A stretch of DNA of 64,000 nt from Minisyncoccia bacterium (GCA_049303835.1 JBAQNN010000002.1:9248-73247); one strand, 5' to 3'. Positions 3,434 to 58,358 are shown, counted from the stretch's first letter. The notes: generated by a model not told the origin, from the letters alone. Numbers and translations are program-made.

Positions 3434-3521
3434 TGGCGGAGGGTAGGAGATTCGAACTCCTGGTGGATTGCTCCACACACGCTTTCCAAGCGTGCGCACT
3501 AGACCGCTATGCGAACCCTCC
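3434..3521 (-). tRNA. tRNA-Ser (anticodon GGA), type II with long variable arm
   Basis: Reverse complement folds as acceptor GGAGGGT/ACCCTCC, anticodon arm CACGC-TTGGAAA-GCGTG, variable stem-loop GTGGAGCAATCCAC, T-arm AGGAG-TTCGAAT-CTCCT, discriminator G and an encoded CCA. Confidence 0.8.
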
Positions 3522-3522
3522 G

Positions 3523-3668
3523 TAATAAATAAACAAAAAACACGCTTTCCAAGTCAGTAGTCCCTTCGGCACTAGACCGCTATGCGAACCCTCCGTAATA
3601 AATAAACAAAAAACACGCTTTCCAAGTCAGTAGTCCCTTCGGCACTAGACCGCTATGCAAACCCTTCT
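3523..3668 (-). repeat. Two tandem ~73-bp direct repeats (3523-3595 and 3596-3668, 2-3 mismatches). Each is a truncated copy of the tRNA-Ser 5' half followed by a T-run
   Basis: On the minus strand each unit reads GGAGGGTTCGCATAGCGGTCTAGTGC..CTTGGAAAGCGTG TTTTTTGTTTATTTATTA. It shares the acceptor 5' strand, D-arm and anticodon loop with the neighbouring tRNA. Confidence 0.7.
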
Positions 3669-10564: not shown

Positions 10565-10665
10565 AATAAAATTCCTAAACTAATAATAAATAACTTATAA
10601 TAAAATTTCGACTTATTTTTTAATACATACATTATAACAATATGAACAAAAAAGTTATCCACACC

Positions 10666-12954: not shown

Positions 12955-13356
12955 TTATTTTAAAACAGAAACCTTTTCCTGTAAAATTTTTACAACTTGT
13001 TCAATAACCTCAGCTGGAGTGAAATTTGCTTTTACGATATAACCTGACACTCCCAACTTTTTACCTTCATCTATGTCTCGTTGTTCACTTTTGTTTGATA
13101 AAATTATTTTTATACAATCCGGAGATAATTTTTGGGTGTTTATCTCTGATAATGCTTCAAAACCATTCATTTCCGGCATGATTATATCCATCAGCATCAC
13201 ATCAGGGCTGAGCCCCGCCTTCAACTTCTCCAGGGCATTGACGCCACTCGCGGCGGTGTAAACTTCAAAATTATTTTGACTAAATTTGAGAGCATACATA
13301 TCCAAAAGAAAGTTGTCATCATCTACTATTAAAATTTTTCTTTTATTTCCTTCCAT
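12955..13356 (-). CDS. Single-domain response regulator (CheY-like receiver)
   Basis: ILIVDDDNFLLDMY...DVMLMDIIMPEMNGFEAL receiver motifs. 133 aa, no output domain. Confidence 0.75.
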   Translation of the reverse strand: MEGNKRKILIVDDDNFLLDMYALKFSQNNFEVYTAASGVNALEKLKAGLSPDVMLMDIIMPEMNGFEALSEINTQKLSPDCIKIILSNKSEQRDIDEGKKLGVSGYIVKANFTPAEVIEQVVKILQEKVSVLK

Positions 13357-20539: not shown

Positions 20540-20629
20540 GTACGTAATTAAATAATTACTTAATTACGTAGTTACTCTAGCATATTTGTTTCATTTTTCC
20601 ATTTTTCTGCTATACTCCTTTTAAGTTTA

Positions 20630-20744
20630 GGAGAGATGGGTGAGATGGGCAAGGAGGCAACTGCTTGCCTCCGAGCCGGCACGAAGTGCAGGCCACGAAC
20701 CCATCGAATCGCGCAAGCGACTCCGTTTAAGCGGAGCTAATATA
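20630..20744 (+). other. tRNA-like fragment: duplicate of the first 15 nt of the downstream tRNA, then a ~100-nt GC-rich structured segment
   Basis: GGAGAGATGGGTGAG is identical to the 5' end of the tRNA at 20746. It is followed by an 8-bp stem GGAGGCAA-CTGC-TTGCCTCC and the hairpin GACTCCG-TTTAA-GCGGAGC. Confidence 0.3.
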
Positions 20745-20745
20745 C

Positions 20746-20835
20746 GGAGAGATGGGTGAGTGGCTTAAACCAACAGTTTACTAAACTGTCGTCCCCTTAA
20801 AAGGACCGAGGGTTCGAATCCCTCTCTCTCCGCCA
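20746..20835 (+). tRNA. Type II tRNA (long variable arm) with an atypical anticodon loop. The standard cloverleaf gives anticodon ACT (Ser-like); a one-nt register shift gives CTA
   Basis: Acceptor GGAGAGA/TCTCTCC, anticodon hairpin ACAGT-TTACTAA-ACTGT, variable arm CGTCCCCTTAAAAGGACC, T-arm GAGGG-TTCGAAT-CCCTC, encoded CCA. Confidence 0.55.
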
Positions 20836-28294: not shown

Positions 28295-28468
28295 GTGTGA
28301 GTCATTATACATGAATTTGGCAAAAAATGACCAGTACTTTTCACCAATTTTGACAAAAGAAAACACTAAAAAAAAGAAGACAAGAGCTAGGCGCTCCGAC
28401 CGAGTATTTGTAAGCTCAAAAGACGACAGTCCTTGAAATAAATTCAACCAGGTATAAACTAATTTTTG

Positions 28469-28542
28469 TCCGCGTGCCACGATTCGAACGTGGGACCCTC
28501 GAGGTATAAGCTCGATGCTCTAACCAACTGAGCTACACGCGG
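28469..28542 (-). tRNA. tRNA-Ile (anticodon TAT), 74 nt, class I
   Basis: Acceptor CCGCGTG/CACGCGG, D-arm GCTC-AGTTGGTTA-GAGC, anticodon arm TCGAG-CTTATAC-CTCGA, T-arm CCACG-TTCGAAT-CGTGG. CCA not encoded. Confidence 0.65.
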
Positions 28543-34374: not shown

Positions 34375-34422
34375 ATAAAAAATCCCCCGTTAAAGCCTAC
34401 AGGCTTCAATGGGGGATTTTTT
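34375..34422. terminator. Bidirectional rho-independent terminator after rplT
   Basis: AAAAAATCCCCC..GGGGGATTTTTT hairpin with flanking A/T runs. Confidence 0.55.
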
Positions 34423-35047
34423 ATTGTGCGTCGGATACGGATTCTTTTACAATCTTATATTCTTGAATCTTATCTTTTTTAACTAGGGCGATGACTTCTT
34501 CTAGAAGCTTCTTGGGGTCATCTCCAGCAGCGACTTTTGCATTAGGACGATTACTTTTTTCTAAAATTTCTTTAAGTTCATTTCCCATTTCCCACGGACC
34601 TTCAAAGATACCTATAGGTTTTCCATCTTCAAAGGCAATGGTAAATTCGTGTATCGTCCCAATACGTCCACAACCACAGATGACAGCGTCAGCTGAACGA
34701 GTGAGCAAGAGATCACGGCCAGGATAACCAAAACCGGTATAAATAATCAAATCCATATAATCCAACGGGAGCTTATAAACTTCCGCGTGCTCCTTTTCGT
34801 TTGCAGCAGGAGAAATACCAATAGAAACCCCACCTTCCTCTTTTGTTCCCATAGCTACCCACAAAGGAAAGCCAGTCGTAGCCCCCGTCACCAAGACTGC
34901 CCCCTGACGAGCAATCTCTCTTCCTAGCTCTTTTGCTTTATCAAGAGCATTCAGTCCACAATGCCCCGTCTCGGCTGCTCCAGAAACACAGATTTTAATC
35001 TGACTATGTCCATGTTTTTGTAAAAAATTTCTTGTTTGATCATCCAT
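34421..35047 (-). CDS. Rossmann-fold nucleotide-binding protein of the LOG / TIGR00725-like family
   Basis: ICVSGAAETGHCG..GAVLVTGATTGFPLWVAMG..GCGRIGT pattern. Confidence 0.4.
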   Translation of the reverse strand: MDDQTRNFLQKHGHSQIKICVSGAAETGHCGLNALDKAKELGREIARQGAVLVTGATTGFPLWVAMGTKEEGGVSIGISPAANEKEHAEVYKLPLDYMDLIIYTGFGYPGRDLLLTRSADAVICGCGRIGTIHEFTIAFEDGKPIGIFEGPWEMGNELKEILEKSNRPNAKVAAGDDPKKLLEEVIALVKKDKIQEYKIVKESVSDAQ

Positions 35048-37649: not shown

Positions 37650-40418
37650 TTACTCCATCGTCTTGTATCTTCCCATGATTTCCGCCTCTACTTCCGCACG
37701 ATCGCGGCCGTATTTTACATAAGAAAGTTCTTTTAGAGAATCTACAATATCCGGATTCCCCTTCTCGGGCGCAAGGGTCTTTAAGTTAAAAGGTTTAGTA
37801 GGTTGACCATTAACAAGCATATTTACATACGCATTGTAATTATCCAGTTTGGTTATATCTTGGGCGCTAAAAATTGGTTTAAATTTCGGCTCCAAAAATG
37901 TAGCATCTTCAGTGCCGACTCGGAAAACAGCCATAGAGCCCACGTTGCCGAAAACCGCATTTTTAATATTCTCTTCAAGTTGGGTAATGTACTGGTGCGC
38001 AATGTTGAGTGAGAGTCTGTATTTTCTAGCTTCGGATAAAATAGAAGCGATAGAATCAGTAGTGACATTTTGGAACTCATCTATGTAAAGATAGAAATCA
38101 TTCATTGGCTTGCCGAACATATCTACGCGAGAAAGCGCAGCCATCTGAATTTTCCCTACCAACACCAGTCCGATTAAGTTCGCATTTATGTCACCGAGCC
38201 TGCCTTTGGAAAGGTTGACCAGCAGAATTTTCTTCTCATCCATAATCTTCCTAAAGTTGAAAACGGAATTTTGCTGTAACACCACCGGACGCATGATGTC
38301 GTTTGAGATGAAATTATCAAACTTGGATGAAATATAAGGCACGAAGTTAGCCAAGGATTGGTCCCCTGTCGTCTGCTCGACGGAAACCCAGAATTGCTTG
38401 ATAATTGGATTCTTGCACCTGGCAAGTTTCAAATCACGAAACTCCTTGTCCGCCAGGACGCGGGTAATTTCAAGTAAGGTTGAGCCTGACTCTGGGTCTT
38501 CCATCACTAGGAAGGCGCTGTTGCGGAAATACTGTTCAAACATCGCCCCACCTCCCACCTTCATATCAAAAAGTTTGTTGAAAATTCCCATCAACTCATT
38601 CACTACAAAAGTCTTCTGTTCAGGATATTTCGGATCATACTCAAGCATATTGAGCCCCATAGGTCGCGCCGTGTAAGCGGGGTCAAAATAAATCACATCA
38701 TCAATACGCTCTTTGGGAATTCGCGAGAGAATAGTCTGGATATCGGTACCGTGCGGATCAATATAACAGCATCCATCTCCATTCTTGATATCTTGAGTTA
38801 TCATATTGAGCATAATGTTTGTTTTTCCCGTACCAGTCTGCCCCACTACATAGAAATGCCTCATGCGGTCTTCACGCGCCAGGTGAATCTCCGTATCTCG
38901 GCCTCGGTAACTATTGACCCCCAAAACAATACCTTCCTGCCCCATTTCAATCGGAGCCGGAGCGATACCCGCCCTGGCCTCTTTCAGTTGTGGTTGGCTG
39001 CCTATGCCTATCGGAAAATGAAAAACTGAGGCAAGCTCTTTTAAGTTCATGGGCAATGTTTTATCGGGAGAAAAAGTACGATAAGAAAAATCATGGAAAA
39101 GTTTTTTTAAATCACTTCCACTTAATTGCTCAAAAATTAAAGAATTGCTCGCCGCTTCAGAAAATTGATTAAAAGATGATTCTATCTCCCTTAATACTGC
39201 TTCGGCACGTTCTTTGTTTTCCCCCGAAGCGATAATGCGGATATTCGCTTTCATGATAGTGCTCTTTATCTTACTGCCTATTTTTTCCACTGCCCCCTCG
39301 TCTACTGCTCGTCTGCCTTTCATGTATTTTTCTTTATTTTCTTCTTCCTTTTTCTCCTTGTGCCCGAACAAAAGATCTTTCCCTACTTTCAAAAAAGCTT
39401 TGTTAAATTTATAGAAATTATCATCTGCATGTTTGACCGAAGTGCCACTTTTTACATCATCTAAAATTTTGTGAAATTCATTTATAAACTTATCACCGGT
39501 AGGGGCTATCACTATTTGAATCGCCGCTCCTTCGCCGGAAGTCTTTAATTTGGAGAATACATTCAATATAGGGTTCATCGGATCGTGCTCAATATTTTCA
39601 TAAGTTTTTATCGGCATCACAGCGCGCTCGGTGAAAGAAGCATATGCTCCTACTGAACCTCCATTTTCATTGAAAATATTGTAATCATCCGTTACCTCCC
39701 GAATTTTTGCATTATGGTAAAAAGCTAAAATCTGTTTCTCAAAAAGCGAGATATGTTTATTCGGTATGGCCGCATACACAACAACTTCATCACTTTTATT
39801 TTGAAGCGCTACCTCCAAGGTAAAATAATTTTCTTTTTCATTATTCTTGCCGATAGAGATGGATTGCATTCCTGCGTAAAATTGCTCCATCGCGCCAATG
39901 AATTCTTTAAATCCTTTTGATTTATCTGCTTCGTCTTCGGGGGGAGGGAGAGTAATTTCAAAAAGAGTCATTTTGAGAGCTTTATAAACTGGCGAATCCT
40001 CTCTGAAATCAAATGCCACCTGTCCATTTTTTAGATATTGAATAAGAATGCGATGAAAATCATCATCAATGTGTGGATTGCCCATTGCCCCCACTACAGA
40101 AATTGCATTCCGAATTCCCTTCGTGATAACTATACCCAAAAGTTCTTCCATCACTGCATCATGAGATTCAGGACGAAGAGCTAAGATGATACCTTCAGTT
40201 TCTTTTTTATTTAAAACGTTATCTTTGTGTACCAATTTTTCAGTCGGTATATTTTTATATTCACTTATCACCTCTCGTGTTGCATCTTCGGTCACATGTT
40301 CTATGTGCCCCAGATCTTTTAATTCTTCTTCTCTTTTGGCGACATGGGCACGCAAATAATCTAGCTCCTCTTCCGGAGTCTGGAACTTTGGCATTTCTTT
40401 AAAGAAATTCTTTTCCAT
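37650..40418 (-). CDS. Large P-loop ATPase of the FtsK/HerA/VirB4-TraD superfamily with a ~480-aa N-terminal region of unknown function
   Basis: Walker A VVGQTGTGKTN followed by the HerA/VirB4-like DPHG motif (CCYIDPHGTD), Walker B YLYIDEFQN, and LNIAHQ. Confidence 0.55.
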   Translation of the reverse strand: MEKNFFKEMPKFQTPEEELDYLRAHVAKREEELKDLGHIEHVTEDATREVISEYKNIPTEKLVHKDNVLNKKETEGIILALRPESHDAVMEELLGIVITKGIRNAISVVGAMGNPHIDDDFHRILIQYLKNGQVAFDFREDSPVYKALKMTLFEITLPPPEDEADKSKGFKEFIGAMEQFYAGMQSISIGKNNEKENYFTLEVALQNKSDEVVVYAAIPNKHISLFEKQILAFYHNAKIREVTDDYNIFNENGGSVGAYASFTERAVMPIKTYENIEHDPMNPILNVFSKLKTSGEGAAIQIVIAPTGDKFINEFHKILDDVKSGTSVKHADDNFYKFNKAFLKVGKDLLFGHKEKKEEENKEKYMKGRRAVDEGAVEKIGSKIKSTIMKANIRIIASGENKERAEAVLREIESSFNQFSEAASNSLIFEQLSGSDLKKLFHDFSYRTFSPDKTLPMNLKELASVFHFPIGIGSQPQLKEARAGIAPAPIEMGQEGIVLGVNSYRGRDTEIHLAREDRMRHFYVVGQTGTGKTNIMLNMITQDIKNGDGCCYIDPHGTDIQTILSRIPKERIDDVIYFDPAYTARPMGLNMLEYDPKYPEQKTFVVNELMGIFNKLFDMKVGGGAMFEQYFRNSAFLVMEDPESGSTLLEITRVLADKEFRDLKLARCKNPIIKQFWVSVEQTTGDQSLANFVPYISSKFDNFISNDIMRPVVLQQNSVFNFRKIMDEKKILLVNLSKGRLGDINANLIGLVLVGKIQMAALSRVDMFGKPMNDFYLYIDEFQNVTTDSIASILSEARKYRLSLNIAHQYITQLEENIKNAVFGNVGSMAVFRVGTEDATFLEPKFKPIFSAQDITKLDNYNAYVNMLVNGQPTKPFNLKTLAPEKGNPDIVDSLKELSYVKYGRDRAEVEAEIMGRYKTME

Positions 40419-41374: not shown

Positions 41375-41479
41375 ACAATGATTTATGGGGAAGTAGAGAA
41401 TCTCACTACCCTATTTAATTACGTAATTAATTATGTACCTAATTATACACCCCCTCAGTCATCTTCCAAAAGTATTGCT

Positions 41480-48649: not shown

Positions 48650-49171
48650 CTAGTGATCAGCGTAAAGATAGTTACTGTAGGGCCAGTTTATACACCAAAC
48701 ACCTTCACTGCCTAATGTGTAAAATTTCCATCGTTTTAATTCACAACGATTCTTATTTCCCTCATCTTCAAATTTAGTAACTAAATCGTATTTACCAGGA
48801 TACAATGCTTCATTGGAAAGAAAAGCATAGTTATAATAATCTCCGACACTCCAAGGGCCCCCTGCCGCAGTATTTATCGGATCTCTAGGAAGAGAATCTA
48901 TATATGGAGCAAGCGCAGTCTGTAAGGTATCCCAGCCAGATGAATAACTATAAACCCAACTAGTGGCAATAGGATAACGATTATAATCATTAAAATACAT
49001 TTCCAGAGCTACTTGAATCTGGTGTAAATCTGAAATTCTCCTCGCATCCCTCGCTTTCTCTCTCGCAGAATTCAAGCTAGCAAAAACAACAGACGAAAGC
49101 AGACTAATGATGGCGACTACTACCAGAAGTTCAATTAAAGTGAATCCTTTTGCTTTAGACTGCCCATTCAT
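48650..49171 (-). CDS. Type IV pilin-like protein inserted in the spc ribosomal operon
   Basis: KGFTLIELLVVVAIISLLSSVVFASLNSAREKARDARRISDLHQIQVALEMYFN. Start at MNGQSK (ATG at 49169-49171). Confidence 0.7.
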   Translation of the reverse strand: MNGQSKAKGFTLIELLVVVAIISLLSSVVFASLNSAREKARDARRISDLHQIQVALEMYFNDYNRYPIATSWVYSYSSGWDTLQTALAPYIDSLPRDPINTAAGGPWSVGDYYNYAFLSNEALYPGKYDLVTKFEDEGNKNRCELKRWKFYTLGSEGVWCINWPYSNYLYADH

Positions 49172-49190
49172 GAGTAAATGATACCTCAAT

Positions 49191-49240
49191 CTCCCAAAAA
49201 TAAAAACCTCGTGAACTAACGAGGTTTTTATTTTTGGGAG
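49191..49240 (-). promoter_or_regulatory. Perfect 22-bp stem / 6-nt loop hairpin between rplE and the inserted pilin gene
   Basis: CTCCCAAAAATAAAAACCTCGT-gaacta-ACGAGGTTTTTATTTTTGGGAG is exactly complementary. Confidence 0.55.
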
Positions 49241-49254
49241 ATTTAAATATTTTT

Positions 49255-49825: not shown

Positions 49826-50131
49826 TTAAATTTCCTGATTACTCTTCTTGGCAATTCTTACCATTTTATCCCCAACTTGTTTTTTTCCAAGGCGAGTGAC
49901 TTTACCTGTTTTAGGATCAAGCATCATTACATTTGAAGCGTTGATAGGCATTTCAATATTTTTCATAGTCCCCTTCTCTCCGGACTTTCTAGGTCGCTGA
50001 TGTTTTTTCATCATATTGAGCCCCTCTACGATGACTTTATTTTCTTTAACCAAAACACTGACAATCTTGCCTTTTTTACCTTTGTCTTTGCCGGCTACCA
50101 CTATTATATTGTCTCCTTTCTTAAGCTTCAT
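49826..50131 (-). CDS. rplX: 50S ribosomal protein L24
   Basis: MKLKKGDNIIVVAGKDKGKKGKIVSV. Confidence 0.9.
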   Translation of the reverse strand: MKLKKGDNIIVVAGKDKGKKGKIVSVLVKENKVIVEGLNMMKKHQRPRKSGEKGTMKNIEMPINASNVMMLDPKTGKVTRLGKKQVGDKMVRIAKKSNQEI

Positions 50132-50164
50132 TTTTTTAATTCGTAATTTTTAATTCGTAATTAT
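50132..50164 (-). promoter_or_regulatory. Intercistronic spacer made of two tandem TAATTCGTAATT repeats immediately upstream of the rplX start
   Basis: Plus strand reads TTTTTTAATTCGTAATTTTTAATTCGTAATTAT. Confidence 0.4.
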
Positions 50165-50536
50165 TTATATAACTTCTTGCGCTAAAGAAATTATTTTCTG
50201 AAATCCCTTCTCTGCCAATTCTCTCGGTATCGGACCGAATACGCGACCAGCTTTCGGATCTTTTTTCCCTTTTTCCAAAATAACTACAGCGTTATCATCA
50301 AAACGAATATAAGAACCGTCTTTTCGTCTATAAGCACCTCTAGTACGTACAACTACAGCCTGGTGTACATCTTTCTTCTTTACGGCCTTTCTTGGGCTAG
50401 CCACTTTTACTGATATAATGACAATTTCTCCTAAAGTCGCATACCTCTTTTTGGAAGAGCCCAAAATCTTAAACACCTTTCCCACGGTGCCTCCGGCGTT
50501 GTCTGTTATTTTTACTAAAGTTTCATTTTGAATCAT
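50165..50536 (-). CDS. rplN: 50S ribosomal protein L14
   Basis: MIQNETLVKITDNAGG.. Confidence 0.9.
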   Translation of the reverse strand: MIQNETLVKITDNAGGTVGKVFKILGSSKKRYATLGEIVIISVKVASPRKAVKKKDVHQAVVVRTRGAYRRKDGSYIRFDDNAVVILEKGKKDPKAGRVFGPIPRELAEKGFQKIISLAQEVI

Positions 50537-51461: not shown

Positions 51462-51492
51462 ACAATTTTATGTGGCGTTAAGCTCGTAGATA

Positions 51493-53047: not shown

Positions 53048-53076
53048 AAAAAATAGCTCTTAACGAGCTTGGTTTT

Positions 53077-53104
53077 ATAATAGCAAATTTAATCTTAATG
53101 TCAA
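53077..53104 (-). promoter_or_regulatory. Near-consensus sigma70-like promoter (TTGACA-N16-TATTAT) just upstream of rpsS
   Basis: Minus strand reads TTGACATTAAGATTAAATTTGCTATTAT. Confidence 0.4.
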
Positions 53105-53223
53105 CTAGATTCTAAAAGACCATTGTAATAAAAAGCTCAAATAAAAAAATGTCAAATTAAAATACTGAAGCCCCAGAACACCGTTGTGTGTTCTGGGGCA
53201 TGATAGTTTCGGCTTGGGAGATT

Positions 53224-53391
53224 TTACTCCCTCGCCGGATGTGCCTCCACGACGGACCCGAACGTGAAACGCTCACAGTCGGTGTGGAAGCAGAAGAACC
53301 GTGGGTGACGGACTCCGATCTCCGGCCTCTTGAGCTTGTTCCAGCAGATTCGCGGCTTCTTGGTTTCGGGGCGAGCGGGGATCTTCTTCAT
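53224..53391 (-). CDS. Small ORF 4 of the GC-rich cassette (55 aa, Cys-rich: CWNK..CFHTDC). It may instead start at 53472, which would add CLLLC
   Basis: SD AGAAGGAGGT 7 nt upstream. The ATG overlaps the ORF 3 stop as ATGA (translational coupling). Confidence 0.45.
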   Translation of the reverse strand: MKKIPARPETKKPRICWNKLKRPEIGVRHPRFFCFHTDCERFTFGSVVEAHPARE

Positions 53392-53552
53392 TGAGCGACC
53401 TCCTTCTCTGTTGCCCAGAATTTTGCCTCCCTCACAAAGAAGGAGACAGTCTGCCTGTTTTTGCTCAGCCATTCCAACAGATAGAACCTGTCGTCTGCTT
53501 GGTGTCTCCTTTCTTCTCTGATTCTCCTTCTGCGTTCCCCCTTTTTACTCAT
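53388..53552 (-). CDS. Small ORF 3 of the GC-rich cassette (54 aa, Arg-rich N-terminus MSKKGERRRRIREERR)
   Basis: GAGG 7 nt upstream, GC-rich codons. Follows ORF 2 after 10 nt. Confidence 0.4.
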   Translation of the reverse strand: MSKKGERRRRIREERRHQADDRFYLLEWLSKNRQTVSFFVREAKFWATEKEVAQ

Positions 53553-53562
53553 GGGAACCTCG

Positions 53563-53805
53563 CTAGAATATGCGACGCATGATCTTGAGATCGTGCTCCC
53601 GGCACTCTTCATCGTAAGAACGAAGATCTTCTCCGAGGACCTCAGCCAGCTCGGAGAAAAGCGACCTTTCCTTCCTGAGAACAGGGTGCCACTTCGGCGG
53701 CCGAAGTGAAGGCACGCGCCTGAGCTCGGTTACCACATCCTCCTTTCTTTTCTGTTCTGGCTTCTTCAGGAACGGATTCTCTTTTCTTGTTTTTCCCACT
53801 GTCAT
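53563..53805 (-). CDS. Small ORF 2 of the GC-rich cassette (80 aa, basic/acidic)
   Basis: Perfect SD GGAGGAAGTTC-ATG, preceded by a promoter-like TTGCTT-N17-TAAATC. Confidence 0.45.
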   Translation of the reverse strand: MTVGKTRKENPFLKKPEQKRKEDVVTELRRVPSLRPPKWHPVLRKERSLFSELAEVLGEDLRSYDEECREHDLKIMRRIF

Positions 53806-54035
53806 GAACTTCCTCCTCTGTTTATGATTTAAACATATATTCTGAAAAAAGCAAGGAAAAAACAATCCTAAAAAAAGAGCCCCAGGACCTGCGACAATTG
53901 CTGTCGAGGTCTCCCGAGGCTATAGGGTGTGGTCGGTCTTAAGCCTACCGACCATTTTTAGCGGACTGGGAATCCGCTTGCGAGGTGGGGTTCCTCGCGA
54001 TGCAGCTCAAGAGGTTTCCCTCCGAGCACCCTTCT

Positions 54036-54158
54036 TTACTCTTCGTCCTCCCTCCGAAGAAGAAGGTTGCGAACTTCTTGTTCGCCTTGACGGCGATCCC
54101 CCCTTCGGGAACCCTTCTTGGCTATCGCCACCTTCTTCTTCTTGTCCTGGTTGGACAT
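54036..54158 (-). CDS. Small ORF 1 of the GC-rich cassette (40 aa, MSNQDKKKKVAIAKKGSRRGDRRQGEQEVRNLLLRREDEE)
   Basis: SD GGAGGTGCGAC-ATG, preceded by TTGCGT-N16-TATAGT and followed by a terminator hairpin. Confidence 0.35.
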   Translation of the reverse strand: MSNQDKKKKVAIAKKGSRRGDRRQGEQEVRNLLLRREDEE

Positions 54159-54255
54159 GTCGCACCTCCGTTAAAAACTATACCACTTTTTCAAGATAAC
54201 GCAACACGTATCAAAAACACCCAGACGAAACCTGGGTGTTTTTAGAAAATGTATT

Positions 54256-56063: not shown

Positions 56064-56678
56064 TTATCTACTGATTATTTCCACTAAAGTCCCCCGCTTA
56101 CCGGCAATTGCTCCTTTGACAAGCATCAAATTATTTTCTTTATCCACCAAGACAACTTTCAGATTTTTTTGAGTAATGCGATCAGAGCCCATTCTGCCAG
56201 CCATTCTCATCCCTCTCGGAACGTGGGTTCGGAGTCCTCCTCCGATACTTCCAGGTTCACGTTCGGAGTGTTTCTGTCCATGCGAACGCGGACCTCCTGA
56301 GAAACCGTGGCGTTTTACGACACCCTGAAAACCTTTACCTTTGGAAACACTAGATACTTGTATTTTATCTCCGGGAACAAAACTTGAGACATCAATCACT
56401 TCTCCTTCTTTCGTCTCGTTTTTGTCGCTTGGTTTTAACCTGAATTCTTTTAGAGTTCTGTAAAACCCTCCCTTCATCGCTCCGGCGGATCCTTTGGAGA
56501 CTCTTTCTTTTTTCTGTACCCCAAAACCAACTTGGATAGAATTATAGCCATCTTTTGCCTTCTCAAAGATTCTAGTCACTGTTATAGGCCCAGCTGTCAC
56601 TATGGTCACTGGAAAAACAGTTCCGTCTTCAGAAAAGTACTCTGCCATATTTTCTTTTGTTCCCAGTATAAACTTCAT
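56064..56678 (-). CDS. rplC: 50S ribosomal protein L3
   Basis: MKFILGTKENMAEYFSEDGTVFPVTIV.. Confidence 0.9.
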   Translation of the reverse strand: MKFILGTKENMAEYFSEDGTVFPVTIVTAGPITVTRIFEKAKDGYNSIQVGFGVQKKERVSKGSAGAMKGGFYRTLKEFRLKPSDKNETKEGEVIDVSSFVPGDKIQVSSVSKGKGFQGVVKRHGFSGGPRSHGQKHSEREPGSIGGGLRTHVPRGMRMAGRMGSDRITQKNLKVVLVDKENNLMLVKGAIAGKRGTLVEIISR

Positions 56679-56712
56679 GGTTAATTCGTAATTGCTAATT
56701 CGTAATTGATTG
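56679..56712 (-). promoter_or_regulatory. Intercistronic rpsJ-rplC spacer made of two tandem TAATTCGTAATTG repeats
   Basis: Plus strand reads GGTTAATTCGTAATTGCTAATTCGTAATTGATTG. Confidence 0.4.
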
Positions 56713-57135
56713 TTACATCATCTTCACATCAATATCAACTCCAGAAGGAAGCGAAAGATTAGTAAGAGCCTCAACGGTCTTTTGATTTGGGTTTATAATA
56801 TCAATCAATCTCTTGTGTACTCTTATTTCAAATTGTTCTCTGGTATTTTTGTAAATAAAAGAAGAACGATTGACTGTATATTTTTTTATTTCTGTTGGAA
56901 GCGGTACAGGTCCCACGATTGTAGCATCATACCTGACTGCCGTATCCATGATTTGTTTAACAGACGCATCCAGAATCTTGCTCTCGTAAGCACGAACTCG
57001 GATACGAAGCACAACTTTGCCATCTTCTCCACCTGCACCCTTTTTAAGGGAAACTTTTGGCATCTTAGCCTTTTCCGTTTTTGCTGATTTAGTAACGGCT
57101 TTTGGCTCTTTTATTTTTGTATGTGCTGTTGTCAT
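56713..57135 (-). CDS. rpsJ: 30S ribosomal protein S10 with a ~40-aa Lys-rich N-terminal extension
   Basis: RIRVRAYESKILDASVKQIMDTAVRYDATIVGPVPLPT. Confidence 0.85.
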   Translation of the reverse strand: MTTAHTKIKEPKAVTKSAKTEKAKMPKVSLKKGAGGEDGKVVLRIRVRAYESKILDASVKQIMDTAVRYDATIVGPVPLPTEIKKYTVNRSSFIYKNTREQFEIRVHKRLIDIINPNQKTVEALTNLSLPSGVDIDVKMM

Positions 57136-57164
57136 GGTACTAAATCGTAATTTCTAATTCTTAA
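57136..57164 (-). promoter_or_regulatory. tuf-rpsJ spacer containing two degenerate copies of the same repeat (TAAATCGTAATTT, CTAATTCTTAATT)
   Basis: Seen in sequence. Matches the motif at 50132 and 56679. Confidence 0.3.
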
Positions 57165-58358
57165 TTATCCCAAGATTTTTGTTACAACACCCGCACCGAC
57201 AGTCTTCCCCCCTTCACGGATGGCAAACTTTTGTGTTTCTTCAAGGGCAACCGGGGTAACCAATTTAACTGTAATTTTAACTGTATCTCCAGGCATGACC
57301 ATCTCTGTTCCTTCTGCAAGGGTCACATCTCCAGTTACGTCTGTGGTACGAATATAGAATTGAGGTTTATATCCTTTGAAAAATGGGGTATGTCGTCCTC
57401 CTTCTTCTTTCTTTAATACGTATATTTCGCAAGTAAAGTTGTCATGCGGAGTAACAGTACCTGGCTTTGCCAAAACTTGTCCGCGAGTGATGTCTTCTTT
57501 TTTCAAACCTCGGAGAAGAATACCGGCATTGTCTCCGGCCATACCTTCTTGAAGATTTTTATTGAACATTTCAATTCCGGTAACGGTTGTCTTTTGAGTA
57601 GGTTTGATTCCAATGATTTCAACATCTTCACCAACCTTCACTACCCCTCTTTCAATTTTACCGGTAACAACTGTTCCTCGGCCTTCAATGGAGAAGATGT
57701 CTTCTACCGGCATAAGGAATGGTTTTGAAGTATCACGTTCTGGGACTGGGATGTAAGTATCAAGTGCATCGGTCAATTCAAGAATCTTCTTTGCCCATTC
57801 ATCATCAACTGACTTTGCTTCAAGACCCTTAAGAGCGGATCCGCGAATAACTGGAGCATTTGCTCCATCAAAGCCTTGCTTGGTTAGAAGTTCACGAATT
57901 TCTTCTTCAACCATGTCAATCATATCTTTATCATCAACCATGTCGCATTTGTTTAGGAAAACAATCATTTTTGGAACACCAACTTGTTTTGCAAGGAGAA
58001 CGTGTTCGCGGGTCTGGGGCATAGCACCGTCAGTAGCGGCCACCACCAAGATAGCACCGTCCATTTGAGCGGCACCAGTAATCATGTTTTTGATGTAGTC
58101 AGCGTGTCCCGGAGCATCTATGTGCGCATAGTGACGAGCATCAGTAGCGTACTCGTTGTGAGAAATGTTAATAGTGATTCCACGAGCTTTTTCTTCAGGA
58201 GCGTTGTCAATCTGATCAACTCCACGAAGACGAACTGTTTTTCCAGCCAAATTTAACACATTTAAAATTGCAGCTGTTAAAGTTGTCTTTCCATGGTCAA
58301 CGTGACCGATGGTGCCGACGTTTATGTGCGGCTTGTCTCTCTTAAATTCTTCTGCCAT
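57165..58358 (-). CDS. tuf: Elongation factor Tu
   Basis: [22 protein letters not shown]. Confidence 0.95.

Follow-up and report, generated by a model that had tools for sequence, protein, structure and literature searches.

Heptanucleotide arrays in intercistronic spacers of the tuf-S10-spc gene cluster of a Candidatus Nomurabacteria bacterium

Gene cluster and spacer arrays

A 64,000-nt stretch of a Minisyncoccia bacterium genome (GCA_049303835.1, JBAQNN010000002.1:9248-73247; hereafter the window, at its full length) carries a str-tuf-S10-spc gene cluster on its minus strand, between 44 and 62 kb. Three intercistronic spacers of this cluster, tuf>rpsJ, rpsJ>rplC and rplN>rplX, are filled by short tandem arrays of a 7-nt unit that end a few nucleotides before the next start codon. 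The host belongs to Candidatus Nomurabacteria (Paceibacteria/Parcubacteria), a lineage of the candidate phyla radiation (CPR); the ribosomal protein L2 of the window is 95-83% identical to that of Nomurabacteria metagenome-assembled genomes in GTDB. A terminator hairpin follows fusA and a strong promoter-like site (TTGACT-16-TATTAT) lies ahead of tuf; a hairpin terminator follows rplB, and another strong promoter-like site precedes rpsS (Table 1). A scan of the window revealed no promoter- or terminator-like signal coinciding with the three arrays, which are internal to transcription units.

The initial annotation described these spacers as two tandem repeats of 13-15 nt, the second ending 0-3 nt before the ATG. 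The repeats are real, but their basic period is 7, the longer repeat being two heptads. Each spacer holds, on the minus strand, four head-to-tail units of the form AATTA plus two further nucleotides (AATTAnn), equivalent to two 14-nt units. The arrays start 0-5 nt past the preceding stop codon because they occupy the entire spacer: that of rpsJ>rplC begins 5 nt past the rpsJ TAA, and that of tuf>rpsJ borrows its first two bases from the end of the tuf stop codon. The distance from the 3' end of the last 12-mer to the ATG was measured at 3, 5 and 5 nt, greater than first stated. Across units, positions 1-5 are at least 93% conserved, and positions 6 and 7 have entropies of 1.68 and 1.51 bits. 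The two 14-nt units of the rplN>rplX array are identical; the tuf>rpsJ array has 1 mismatch in 20 core positions and is 85% identical to the reference copy. Repetition is perfect at a period of 14 but not of 7, and Tandem Repeats Finder (TRF) reports two alternating heptads. Linker dinucleotides are similar inside each array and different between arrays (AA/AA, GC/AC, TC/CA), which points to local 14-nt duplication.

Table 1. Coordinates of genes, arrays and other features in the window
Feature	Coordinates	Strand	Evidence and remarks
tuf (EF-Tu), first gene of tuf-S10 transcription unit	57165..58358	-	Pfam GTP_EFTU
rpsJ (S10), 43-aa N-terminal extension	56713..57135	-	Pfam Ribosomal_S10, residues 44-138; ATG 57135-57133
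rplC (L3), directly 3' of best array	56064..56678	-	Pfam Ribosomal_L3; ATG 56678-56676
rplN (L14), 5' of second array	50165..50536	-	Pfam Ribosomal_L14
rplX (L24), 3' of second array	49826..50131	-	Pfam ribosomal_L24/KOW; ATG 50131-50129
Array rpsJ>rplC	56682..56707 (spacer 56679-56712)	-	AATTACG AATTAGC AATTACG AATTA, then ACC; stop to start TAA-CAATC-AATTACG-AATTAGC-AATTACG-AATTAAC-C-ATG; sequence, repeat scans
Array rplN>rplX	50137..50162 (spacer 50132-50164)	-	AATTACG AATTAAA AATTACG AATTA, then AAAAA; stop to start TAA-AT-AATTACG-AATTAAA-AATTACG-AATTAAA-AAA-ATG; sequence, repeat scans
Degenerate array tuf>rpsJ	57141..57166 (spacer 57136-57164)	-	AATTAAG AATTAGA AATTACG ATTTA, then GTACC; to start (T)AATTAAG-AATTAGA-AATTACG-ATTTAGT-ACC-ATG; sequence, repeat scans
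Second dispersed spacer insert, rpsC>rplP	51462..51492	-	TATCTACGAGCTTAACGCCACATAAAATTGT-ATG; 17-nt core common to window, L002 (twice) and L003 (twice)
Terminator hairpin after fusA	58624-58590
Promoter-like site ahead of tuf	58587-58560		strong
Promoter-like site ahead of rpsS	53104-53077		strong
GC-richer island in rplB-rpsS gap	53048-54255		1.2 kb; minus-strand reading
Small ORFs of the island	54036-54158, 53563-53805, 53388-53552, 53224-53391		no Pfam match
Type IV pilin-like gene	48650-49189	-	N_methyl motif
Long terminator hairpin	49181-49250
14-nt tandem repeat upstream of a pilin gene	10578-10604		TTTATTATAAGTTA / TTTATTATTAGTT on coding strand
tRNA-Ser(GGA) tandem triplication	3496-3665		two exact 73-nt copies and a partial third
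tRNA-Ile(UAU)	28468-28542
tRNA-Ser(ACU)	20746-20835		A at wobble position
Partial copy of tRNA-Ser 5' end	about 20620-20640

Non-randomness of the arrays

The exact 12-mer AATTACGAATTA occurs four times in the window, always inside two of the spacers. With up to one mismatch there are six matches, all in the three spacers, against 1.04 expected, and none of 100 shuffles reached six; this is far above what a random distribution under the AT-rich background would give. A search of both strands for four AATTA cores at 7-nt spacing, allowing up to three mismatches, returned the same three spacers and nothing else in the 64 kb. A repeat-family search recovered one family with three 27-nt copies (100/93/85% identity), and TRF assigned period 14 to all three arrays with scores of 61, 54 and 40.

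The sole second sample of the window organism is one 2.4-kb contig from a Logan assembly made independently (SRR28062879), with an identical L3 gene. The rpsJ>rplC spacer on it matches that of the window exactly, which excludes an assembly artefact, and in this one additional sample the array shows no difference in copy number.

Taken alone, the heptamer AATTACG is not enriched in the window (15 occurrences versus 10.1 expected). The palindromes CGTAATTA and TAATTACG (20541-20570 and 41415-41432), in which a related core had been noticed, therefore cannot be linked to the arrays. They are inverted rather than direct repeats, sit in convergent or tRNA-flanking regions, and as family members were set aside as unrelated or at best unproven.

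Translation start context

Tetramers resembling a Shine-Dalgarno (SD) sequence were found at -20 to -4 in 4 of 69 window genes (11 of 69 in a coding control) and in 19 of 424 genes of close relatives, compared with 123 of 162 genes in Firmicutes loci fetched by an identical search. The lineage does not use SD sequences. None is present in the three array spacers, and the lack of GGAGG that had been remarked on there is correct; it is not special, however, since SD absence is lineage-wide, and it is thus uninformative. Nor is AATTA a general ribosome-binding motif. It occurs in 17 of 69 upstream regions, at the level of other A/T 5-mers, so that the proposed enrichment upstream of starts was not seen, and it was dropped as a candidate. 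TATAAT-like boxes lie 8-13 nt ahead of the ATG of many first genes (e.g., those at 37650-40418, 34421-35047 and 12955-13356), suggesting that leaderless or very short-leader mRNAs are widespread in this SD-less organism.

When folded as RNA, the three array start regions have minimum free energies (MFE) of -2.6 to -3.1 kcal/mol per ~65 nt, with z-scores of +1.46, -0.74 and +0.16, and the rpsJ>rplC region folds more weakly than 194 of 200 shuffles. The array RNA is essentially unstructured. The arrays thus place A/U-rich single-stranded RNA next to the start codon, as is expected of S1-dependent enhancers or standby sites. The idea of an SD-independent initiation or standby element survives in part: array position, the SD-less lineage and the lack of structure fit a passive start region, but not a conserved translation element.

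Comparison with relatives

Twenty-five cluster genes were mapped onto 80 loci fetched around L2 (numbered with the prefix L), and every junction was read. The default spacer is tiny. It measures 10 nt or less at 376 of 786 junctions, is typically T, TTTT, TAAT or AAATT, and ranges from 1 to 15 nt in these operons. Over this default, each genome has its own inserts of 25-100 nt at its own set of junctions.

Arrays of AATTAnn were found in only two of about 60 relatives, the near L002 and the much more distant L024, and partly at other junctions. L002 has arrays before rplX and rplE, together with three degenerate traces and a fifth, partial unit in an array; its rplN>rplX array is orthologous to that of the window and marks the only junction in common, its rpsJ>rplC spacer being TGCT. 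The window copy before rplC and the L002 copy before rplX, although at different junctions, differ at one position. L024 has three AATTAAG units before rplW and a second copy. In both relatives the arrays end 0-7 nt short of the start codon. The orthologous spacers of L001, L003 and L005-L022 are 1-15 nt long or hold quite different inserts, and tuf>rpsJ is in relatives an ordinary A/T-rich spacer ending ...TTTAGTTC(A)ATG, with a clean heptad register in the window only. Between species, the arrays therefore vary in linker bases, in unit number and in presence. Four-fold degenerate sites differ by 51-61% among the window, L001, L002, L003 and L005, which are about equally diverged. Conservation of the motif in orthologous spacers, which had been put forward as a check, with absence from close relatives as a refutation, is not observed: most close relatives lack it, and L002 shares one junction.

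Other spacer inserts and a lineage-wide period of 7

The window arrays belong to a broader pattern. In 1.07 Mb of Paceibacteria loci, 33 of the 55 intergenic tandem repeats with a TRF score of at least 48 have a period of 7, 14 or 21. Among 233 ribosomal protein (r-protein) spacers of 24-149 nt, 26 contain three or more period-7 units, compared with 0.35 in shuffled spacers; periods of 5, 6, 8 and 9 are at background. These 26 spacers come from 13 genomes and 16 different junctions. The pattern of five constant and two variable positions (5+2) also recurs in Paceibacteria families that TRF found without bias (TAGGCnn, CTACTnn and ATAACnn). For example, L003 has TAGGCnn heptamer arrays, and at seven junctions of L063 ATAACnn arrays are followed by inverted GTTATnn arrays. 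In L001, rplC, rplB, rplX and other genes are preceded by long perfect hairpins, and L025, L030, L053 and L061 each have an insert family of their own. Given period 7 and 5+2 units in so many genomes and junctions, the window arrays are one instance of a general genome property and not a signal tied to particular genes.

The inserts of L001-L064 are either perfect hairpins of 15-19 bp or inverted pairs of heptamer arrays with a 5-nt core and two variable positions. They are genome-specific, occupy up to seven junctions per operon and always end a few nucleotides before the ATG (e.g., L063:1122-1211, L025:363-457, L030:7862-7935, and rpsJ>rplC of L001). An MFE of -8 kcal/mol or lower was obtained for 115 of the 233 r-protein spacers of at least 24 nt.

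A second dispersed insert is present in the window at rpsC>rplP (Table 1), so several insert families can settle in spacers of this cluster. This module, CTACGAGCTTAACGCCACATAAAATT, abuts the ATG, and further copies lie at L002:11304, L002:12461, L003:13843 and L003:18213. Three species have the same 17-nt core, at the junctions rpsC>rplP, rpsS>rplV, rplN>rplX and rplO>secY, and it is kept despite 51-53% divergence at four-fold sites. The module is partly antisense to a conserved leader hairpin, AGCTCGTTAAGAGCT, found on the 5' side of rpsS besides the promoter-like site. Elsewhere in the window, a further 14-nt tandem repeat lies 13 nt upstream of the start of a pilin gene.

AATTACG arrays outside the lineage

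A metagenome scan for AATTACGAATTAnnAATTACG returned at least 120 stretches on contigs of 27-67% GC that are unrelated to Paceibacteria; among the matches listed, the best protein identities of array-bearing contigs to Paceibacteria ORFs were 20-53%. Most matches listed are intergenic (AATTACG)n arrays, often in inverted pairs that form hairpins. In IMG/VR, (AATTACG)3 was found in 64 stretches and the TAACTGA heptamer in 107, compared with 6, 14, 8 and 11 for four composition-matched controls. It had been suggested that the motif might be specific to this lineage, a possibility that these many unrelated metagenome and phage contigs, of 24-67% GC, overturn. Coming from unrelated organisms, the metagenome matches say nothing about the window genome.

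Among the matches listed, arrays were not oriented preferentially with respect to the nearest gene start (14 on the same versus 34 on the opposite strand, of 104; in a second set, 28 versus 27, of 78 arrays). A factor encoded next to the arrays was sought among 148 flanking ORFs of the matches listed, and no family had more than three members. The top recurrent neighbour family, with three members, is most likely PF05635 (23S rRNA intervening-sequence protein, an Avd-like four-helix bundle). AATTACG arrays flank its gene of ~115 aa at L090:7156-7656, L151:4648-5476 and L129:492-965, and are inverted in L090 and L151. In a cyanobacterial r-protein locus from Microseira wollei (L078, 5022-15549), long AATTAGC / AATTACC arrays occupy spacers, and one such array immediately precedes an SD and start codon; the unit being almost identical, this is an analogue of the cyanobacterial short tandemly repeated repetitive (STRR) type.

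Comparison with known repeat systems

The closest match in the literature is the TAACTGA repeat of marine Beggiatoaceae (MacGregor 2015). Most of these repeats lie a few nucleotides at most upstream of a start codon, and the spacers concerned usually have no SD; 169 sets are known in the BOGUAY genome, most of them upstream of starts, and several occupy internal r-protein operon junctions, preceding L3, S4, S1 and fusA. The binders discussed were S1, CsrA and cold-shock proteins (with one CspB to each heptamer), and no function was shown (PMC4679880). The window arrays share with TAACTGA the 7-nt unit in short head-to-tail arrays (2-6 copies in TAACTGA), the end within a few nucleotides of a start codon, the usual absence of an SD from the spacer, the position at internal r-protein junctions including that before the L3 gene (and, in TAACTGA, before fusA), and the unit composition A3 T2 C1 G1. 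They differ in the unit itself, since AATTAnn or AATTACG is neither a rotation nor a complement of TAACTGA, and in its alternation, which gives an effective period of 14. The hosts differ too: that of the window is a CPR bacterium lacking SD sequences genome-wide, whereas BOGUAY has an SD at about 25% of genes. There are three copies in 64 kb here, as against 169 sets per genome in BOGUAY.

In Nostoc PCC 7120, contiguous heptamers are found near start codons or promoters genome-wide, and deletion changed reporter output, with no binding partner found (bioRxiv 10.1101/2022.06.06.494920). Like the window arrays, such STRR-type repeats are tandem non-coding heptamers with genome-specific units, often near or overlapping starts. 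Unlike them, the cyanobacterial arrays are usually longer, with perfect units, and are present in hundreds of copies in large genomes; their reported effects concern promoter access as well as translation. According to Mrazek (2007), as reported in PMC4679880, heptanucleotides are the most abundant class among prokaryote repeats of 5-11 nt, and polymerase slippage has been proposed as their origin. These long simple sequence repeats (LSSR; Mrazek et al. 2007), as described there and in PMC4692102, resemble the window arrays in period 7, phylogenetically scattered distribution, non-coding location and proposed slippage, and the excess of period 7 in Paceibacteria spacers agrees with this class. 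The class is there defined statistically, as long for the genome, whereas the window arrays are short (four units), dispersed, conserved in their core and abut start codons.

Two other systems are less close. Repetitive extragenic palindromic (REP) elements, bacterial interspersed mosaic elements and miniature inverted-repeat transposable elements (MITEs) are likewise genome-specific, colonise intercistronic spacers and vary in presence between relatives, and Nomurabacteria neighbours fill the same junctions with hairpin elements or inverted heptamer arrays. The arrays themselves are direct repeats only, with an MFE of about -3 kcal/mol, neither terminal inverted repeats nor target duplication was found in them, and no REP-associated tyrosine transposase or other transposase is in view. 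A/U-rich S1-dependent enhancers and standby sites also present an unstructured A/U-rich stretch 5' of the start without SD pairing but, unlike the arrays, have neither a repeated unit nor a conserved core as a defining feature. Our literature search brought up neither AATTACG arrays nor repeats of this kind in CPR, and nothing on SD usage in Patescibacteria.

Interpretation and alternative explanations

The arrays consist of four units at exact 7-nt spacing, are non-coding and recur with the same unit at several loci. We assign them with high confidence to the heptanucleotide tandem-repeat families of the STRR/LSSR kind, for which the start-proximal TAACTGA arrays are the nearest precedent. 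As to their nature, we lean, with little more than even confidence, towards a slippage-driven dispersed repeat that is tolerated as an unstructured, A/U-rich, SD-free spacer and is not a conserved translation signal. At the DNA level, replication slippage or local duplication would create an array and keep its units homogeneous, and recombination or copying might then seed copies to other intercistronic spacers. Among Nomurabacteria species, copies would turn over fast, appearing and disappearing over the time that species take to diverge. On the polycistronic mRNA, an array could leave the next AUG open to terminating and re-initiating ribosomes or to de novo binding, and so play a passive, perhaps mildly useful role in translation. 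The arrays suit these positions because they are A/U-rich, G-poor and free of structure, and so do not hinder SD-independent initiation at the next AUG; the hairpin inserts of neighbouring genomes may loop themselves out to a similar end. The arrays are neither a regulatory site conserved in position nor a stand-in for the SD that pairs with rRNA. The evidence does not support a conserved translation or regulatory element specific to the lineage; a role as SD-independent start context is plausible.

Several observations weigh against a purely passive repeat. The window and L002 have the same 12-nt core, AATTACGAATTA, even though their four-fold sites differ by 53%, and slippage alone does not explain this identity. 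In 27 of 30 cases, departures from the unit fall at positions 6-7, a figure that carries ascertainment bias, the L002 and L024 copies having been found by an AATTA scan. AATTAnn lies on the mRNA strand in 7 of 7 copies from three species. In IMG/VR, (AATTACG)3 is 5-10 times commoner than the four control heptamers. The non-repetitive spacer module ACGAGCTTAACGCCACA is also identical in three species at different junctions. Core identity, variation at positions 6-7, strand constancy and the AATTACG excess together suggest that the sequence itself is constrained or that a copying mechanism recognises this core. Taken in total, a sequence-specific reader, whether an RNA-binding platform or a copying enzyme, is a minority possibility.

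The best-surviving alternative, which we consider unlikely, is that the heptads form a sequence-specific platform. Each array would provide mRNA sites for an oligomeric or multi-domain single-stranded RNA (ssRNA)-binding protein with ~7 nt per domain, such as a cold-shock domain or S1-like OB fold, and, once bound, this protein would raise or restrain initiation at internal r-protein cistrons in an SD-less organism. Five conserved and two variable positions per unit, repeated in the TAGGCnn, CTACTnn and ATAACnn families, are what such a platform might leave, as are a core that stays identical between species with saturated synonymous sites and an unvarying mRNA-strand orientation with the array end 3-7 nt from the AUG. 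By analogy, one CspB might occupy one heptamer, an idea proposed for TAACTGA (PMC4679880). However, the core differs from genome to genome, so that the specificity of the binder would have to change in every species, and near relatives vary in whether arrays are present and in which genes lie 3' of them. In other Paceibacteria, start-adjacent heptad arrays are rich in A or in T depending on the genome, AATTACG arrays elsewhere lack orientation to genes, and the analysis brought up no candidate protein. In a broader and rather improbable form of this proposal, SD-less Paceibacteria with their minimal spacers would use genome-specific heptad RNA arrays (5-nt core and 2-nt linker, AAUUAnn here) as sequence-specific platforms for an ssRNA-binding protein with 7 nt per domain, handing ribosomes to selected internal cistrons of r-protein operons or withholding them, and the widespread heptanucleotide repeats of bacteria, (AATTACG)n and TAACTGA among them, would be sites of one conserved type of heptad-reading factor.

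A DNA-level element without an mRNA role, either an operator- or iteron-like protein site or the footprint of a miniature mobile element, is improbable. The polymorphism of insertion and absence between species would fit it, as would the near identity of the window rplC copy and the L002 rplX copy. AATTnnnAATT provides a palindromic frame, and AATTACG is present in contigs from phages and bacteria whatever their GC content, its arrays flanking a PF05635 gene in three unrelated contigs. Against this, terminal inverted repeats are lacking, the comparison with empty junctions in L002 and L010 gave no clear target-site duplication, and 26-30 nt is too small for known MITEs. The flanking ORFs listed have no recurrent neighbour family beyond the three members mentioned above, no transposase was seen next to the window copies, and the arrays are not promoter-like.

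For the S10 and spc operons, an r-protein autoregulatory operator or a signal for RNase processing, analogous to the L4 and S8 sites and suggested in the initial annotation, is very improbable, for all that the arrays lie inside these clusters. Known r-protein operators are structured mimics of rRNA at a fixed operon position, whereas the array RNA is unstructured and its position is not conserved among relatives; Rfam gave no r-protein leader match and no other relevant match in the window at gathering or E<=1, only spurious miRNA-model matches on the rplE terminator hairpin. The same motif, moreover, precedes rpsJ, rplC and rplX in the window and rplX and rplE in L002, and is missing in most relatives. 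Endonucleases of the RNase E/Y type prefer A/U-rich cleavage sites, and each unit contains GA|AUU, CA|AUU or AA|AUU, in keeping with an RN|AUU site, but any A/U-rich spacer would contain such motifs.

Finally, an alternative ribosome-binding site in which AAUUACGAAUUA pairs with the 16S 3' end or another exposed rRNA segment in place of SD/anti-SD is extremely improbable: the arrays do overlap the SD position in a lineage without SD, but pairing with canonical 16S tails, which stood in for the organism's own 16S 3' end, reached -0.1 to -4.3 kcal/mol, compared with an SD control at -17 to -18, so the suggested complementarity was not borne out, the motif precedes only 3 of ~70 window genes with AATTA not enriched upstream of starts, and most close relatives lack it although their rRNA should be nearly the same.

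This case extends start-proximal heptanucleotide repeats to CPR/Patescibacteria. Across ~60 relatives, period 7 is enriched in otherwise tiny r-protein spacers, each genome has its own 5+2 unit, and cores can be kept while synonymous sites saturate. As minimal, SD-less organisms with few RNA-binding proteins, CPR bacteria offer a compact system in which to seek a heptad-reading factor, if one exists. For annotation, such arrays are best treated as spacer fillers of fast turnover and not as a conserved ribosome-binding signal, the absence of GGAGG being normal in this lineage.

Other features of the window

The rplB-rpsS gap, which ranges from 132 to 7337 nt in relatives, is occupied in the window by a 1.2-kb GC-richer island with four small ORFs (Table 1). 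All four have GGAGG or GAGG SD sequences upstream in a genome otherwise without SD, which suggests that the island is of foreign origin. Between rplE and rpsN, the spc cluster is interrupted by a type IV pilin-like gene, which comes after a long terminator hairpin and is paralogous to pilin genes at 30.9-32.0 kb.

Together with 47 nt upstream, the 5' portion of tRNA-Ser(GGA) is tandemly triplicated and may be a remnant of integration events or duplication. A partial copy of a tRNA-Ser 5' end is also present, and two tRNAs, tRNA-Ile(UAU) and tRNA-Ser(ACU), have unusual anticodons.

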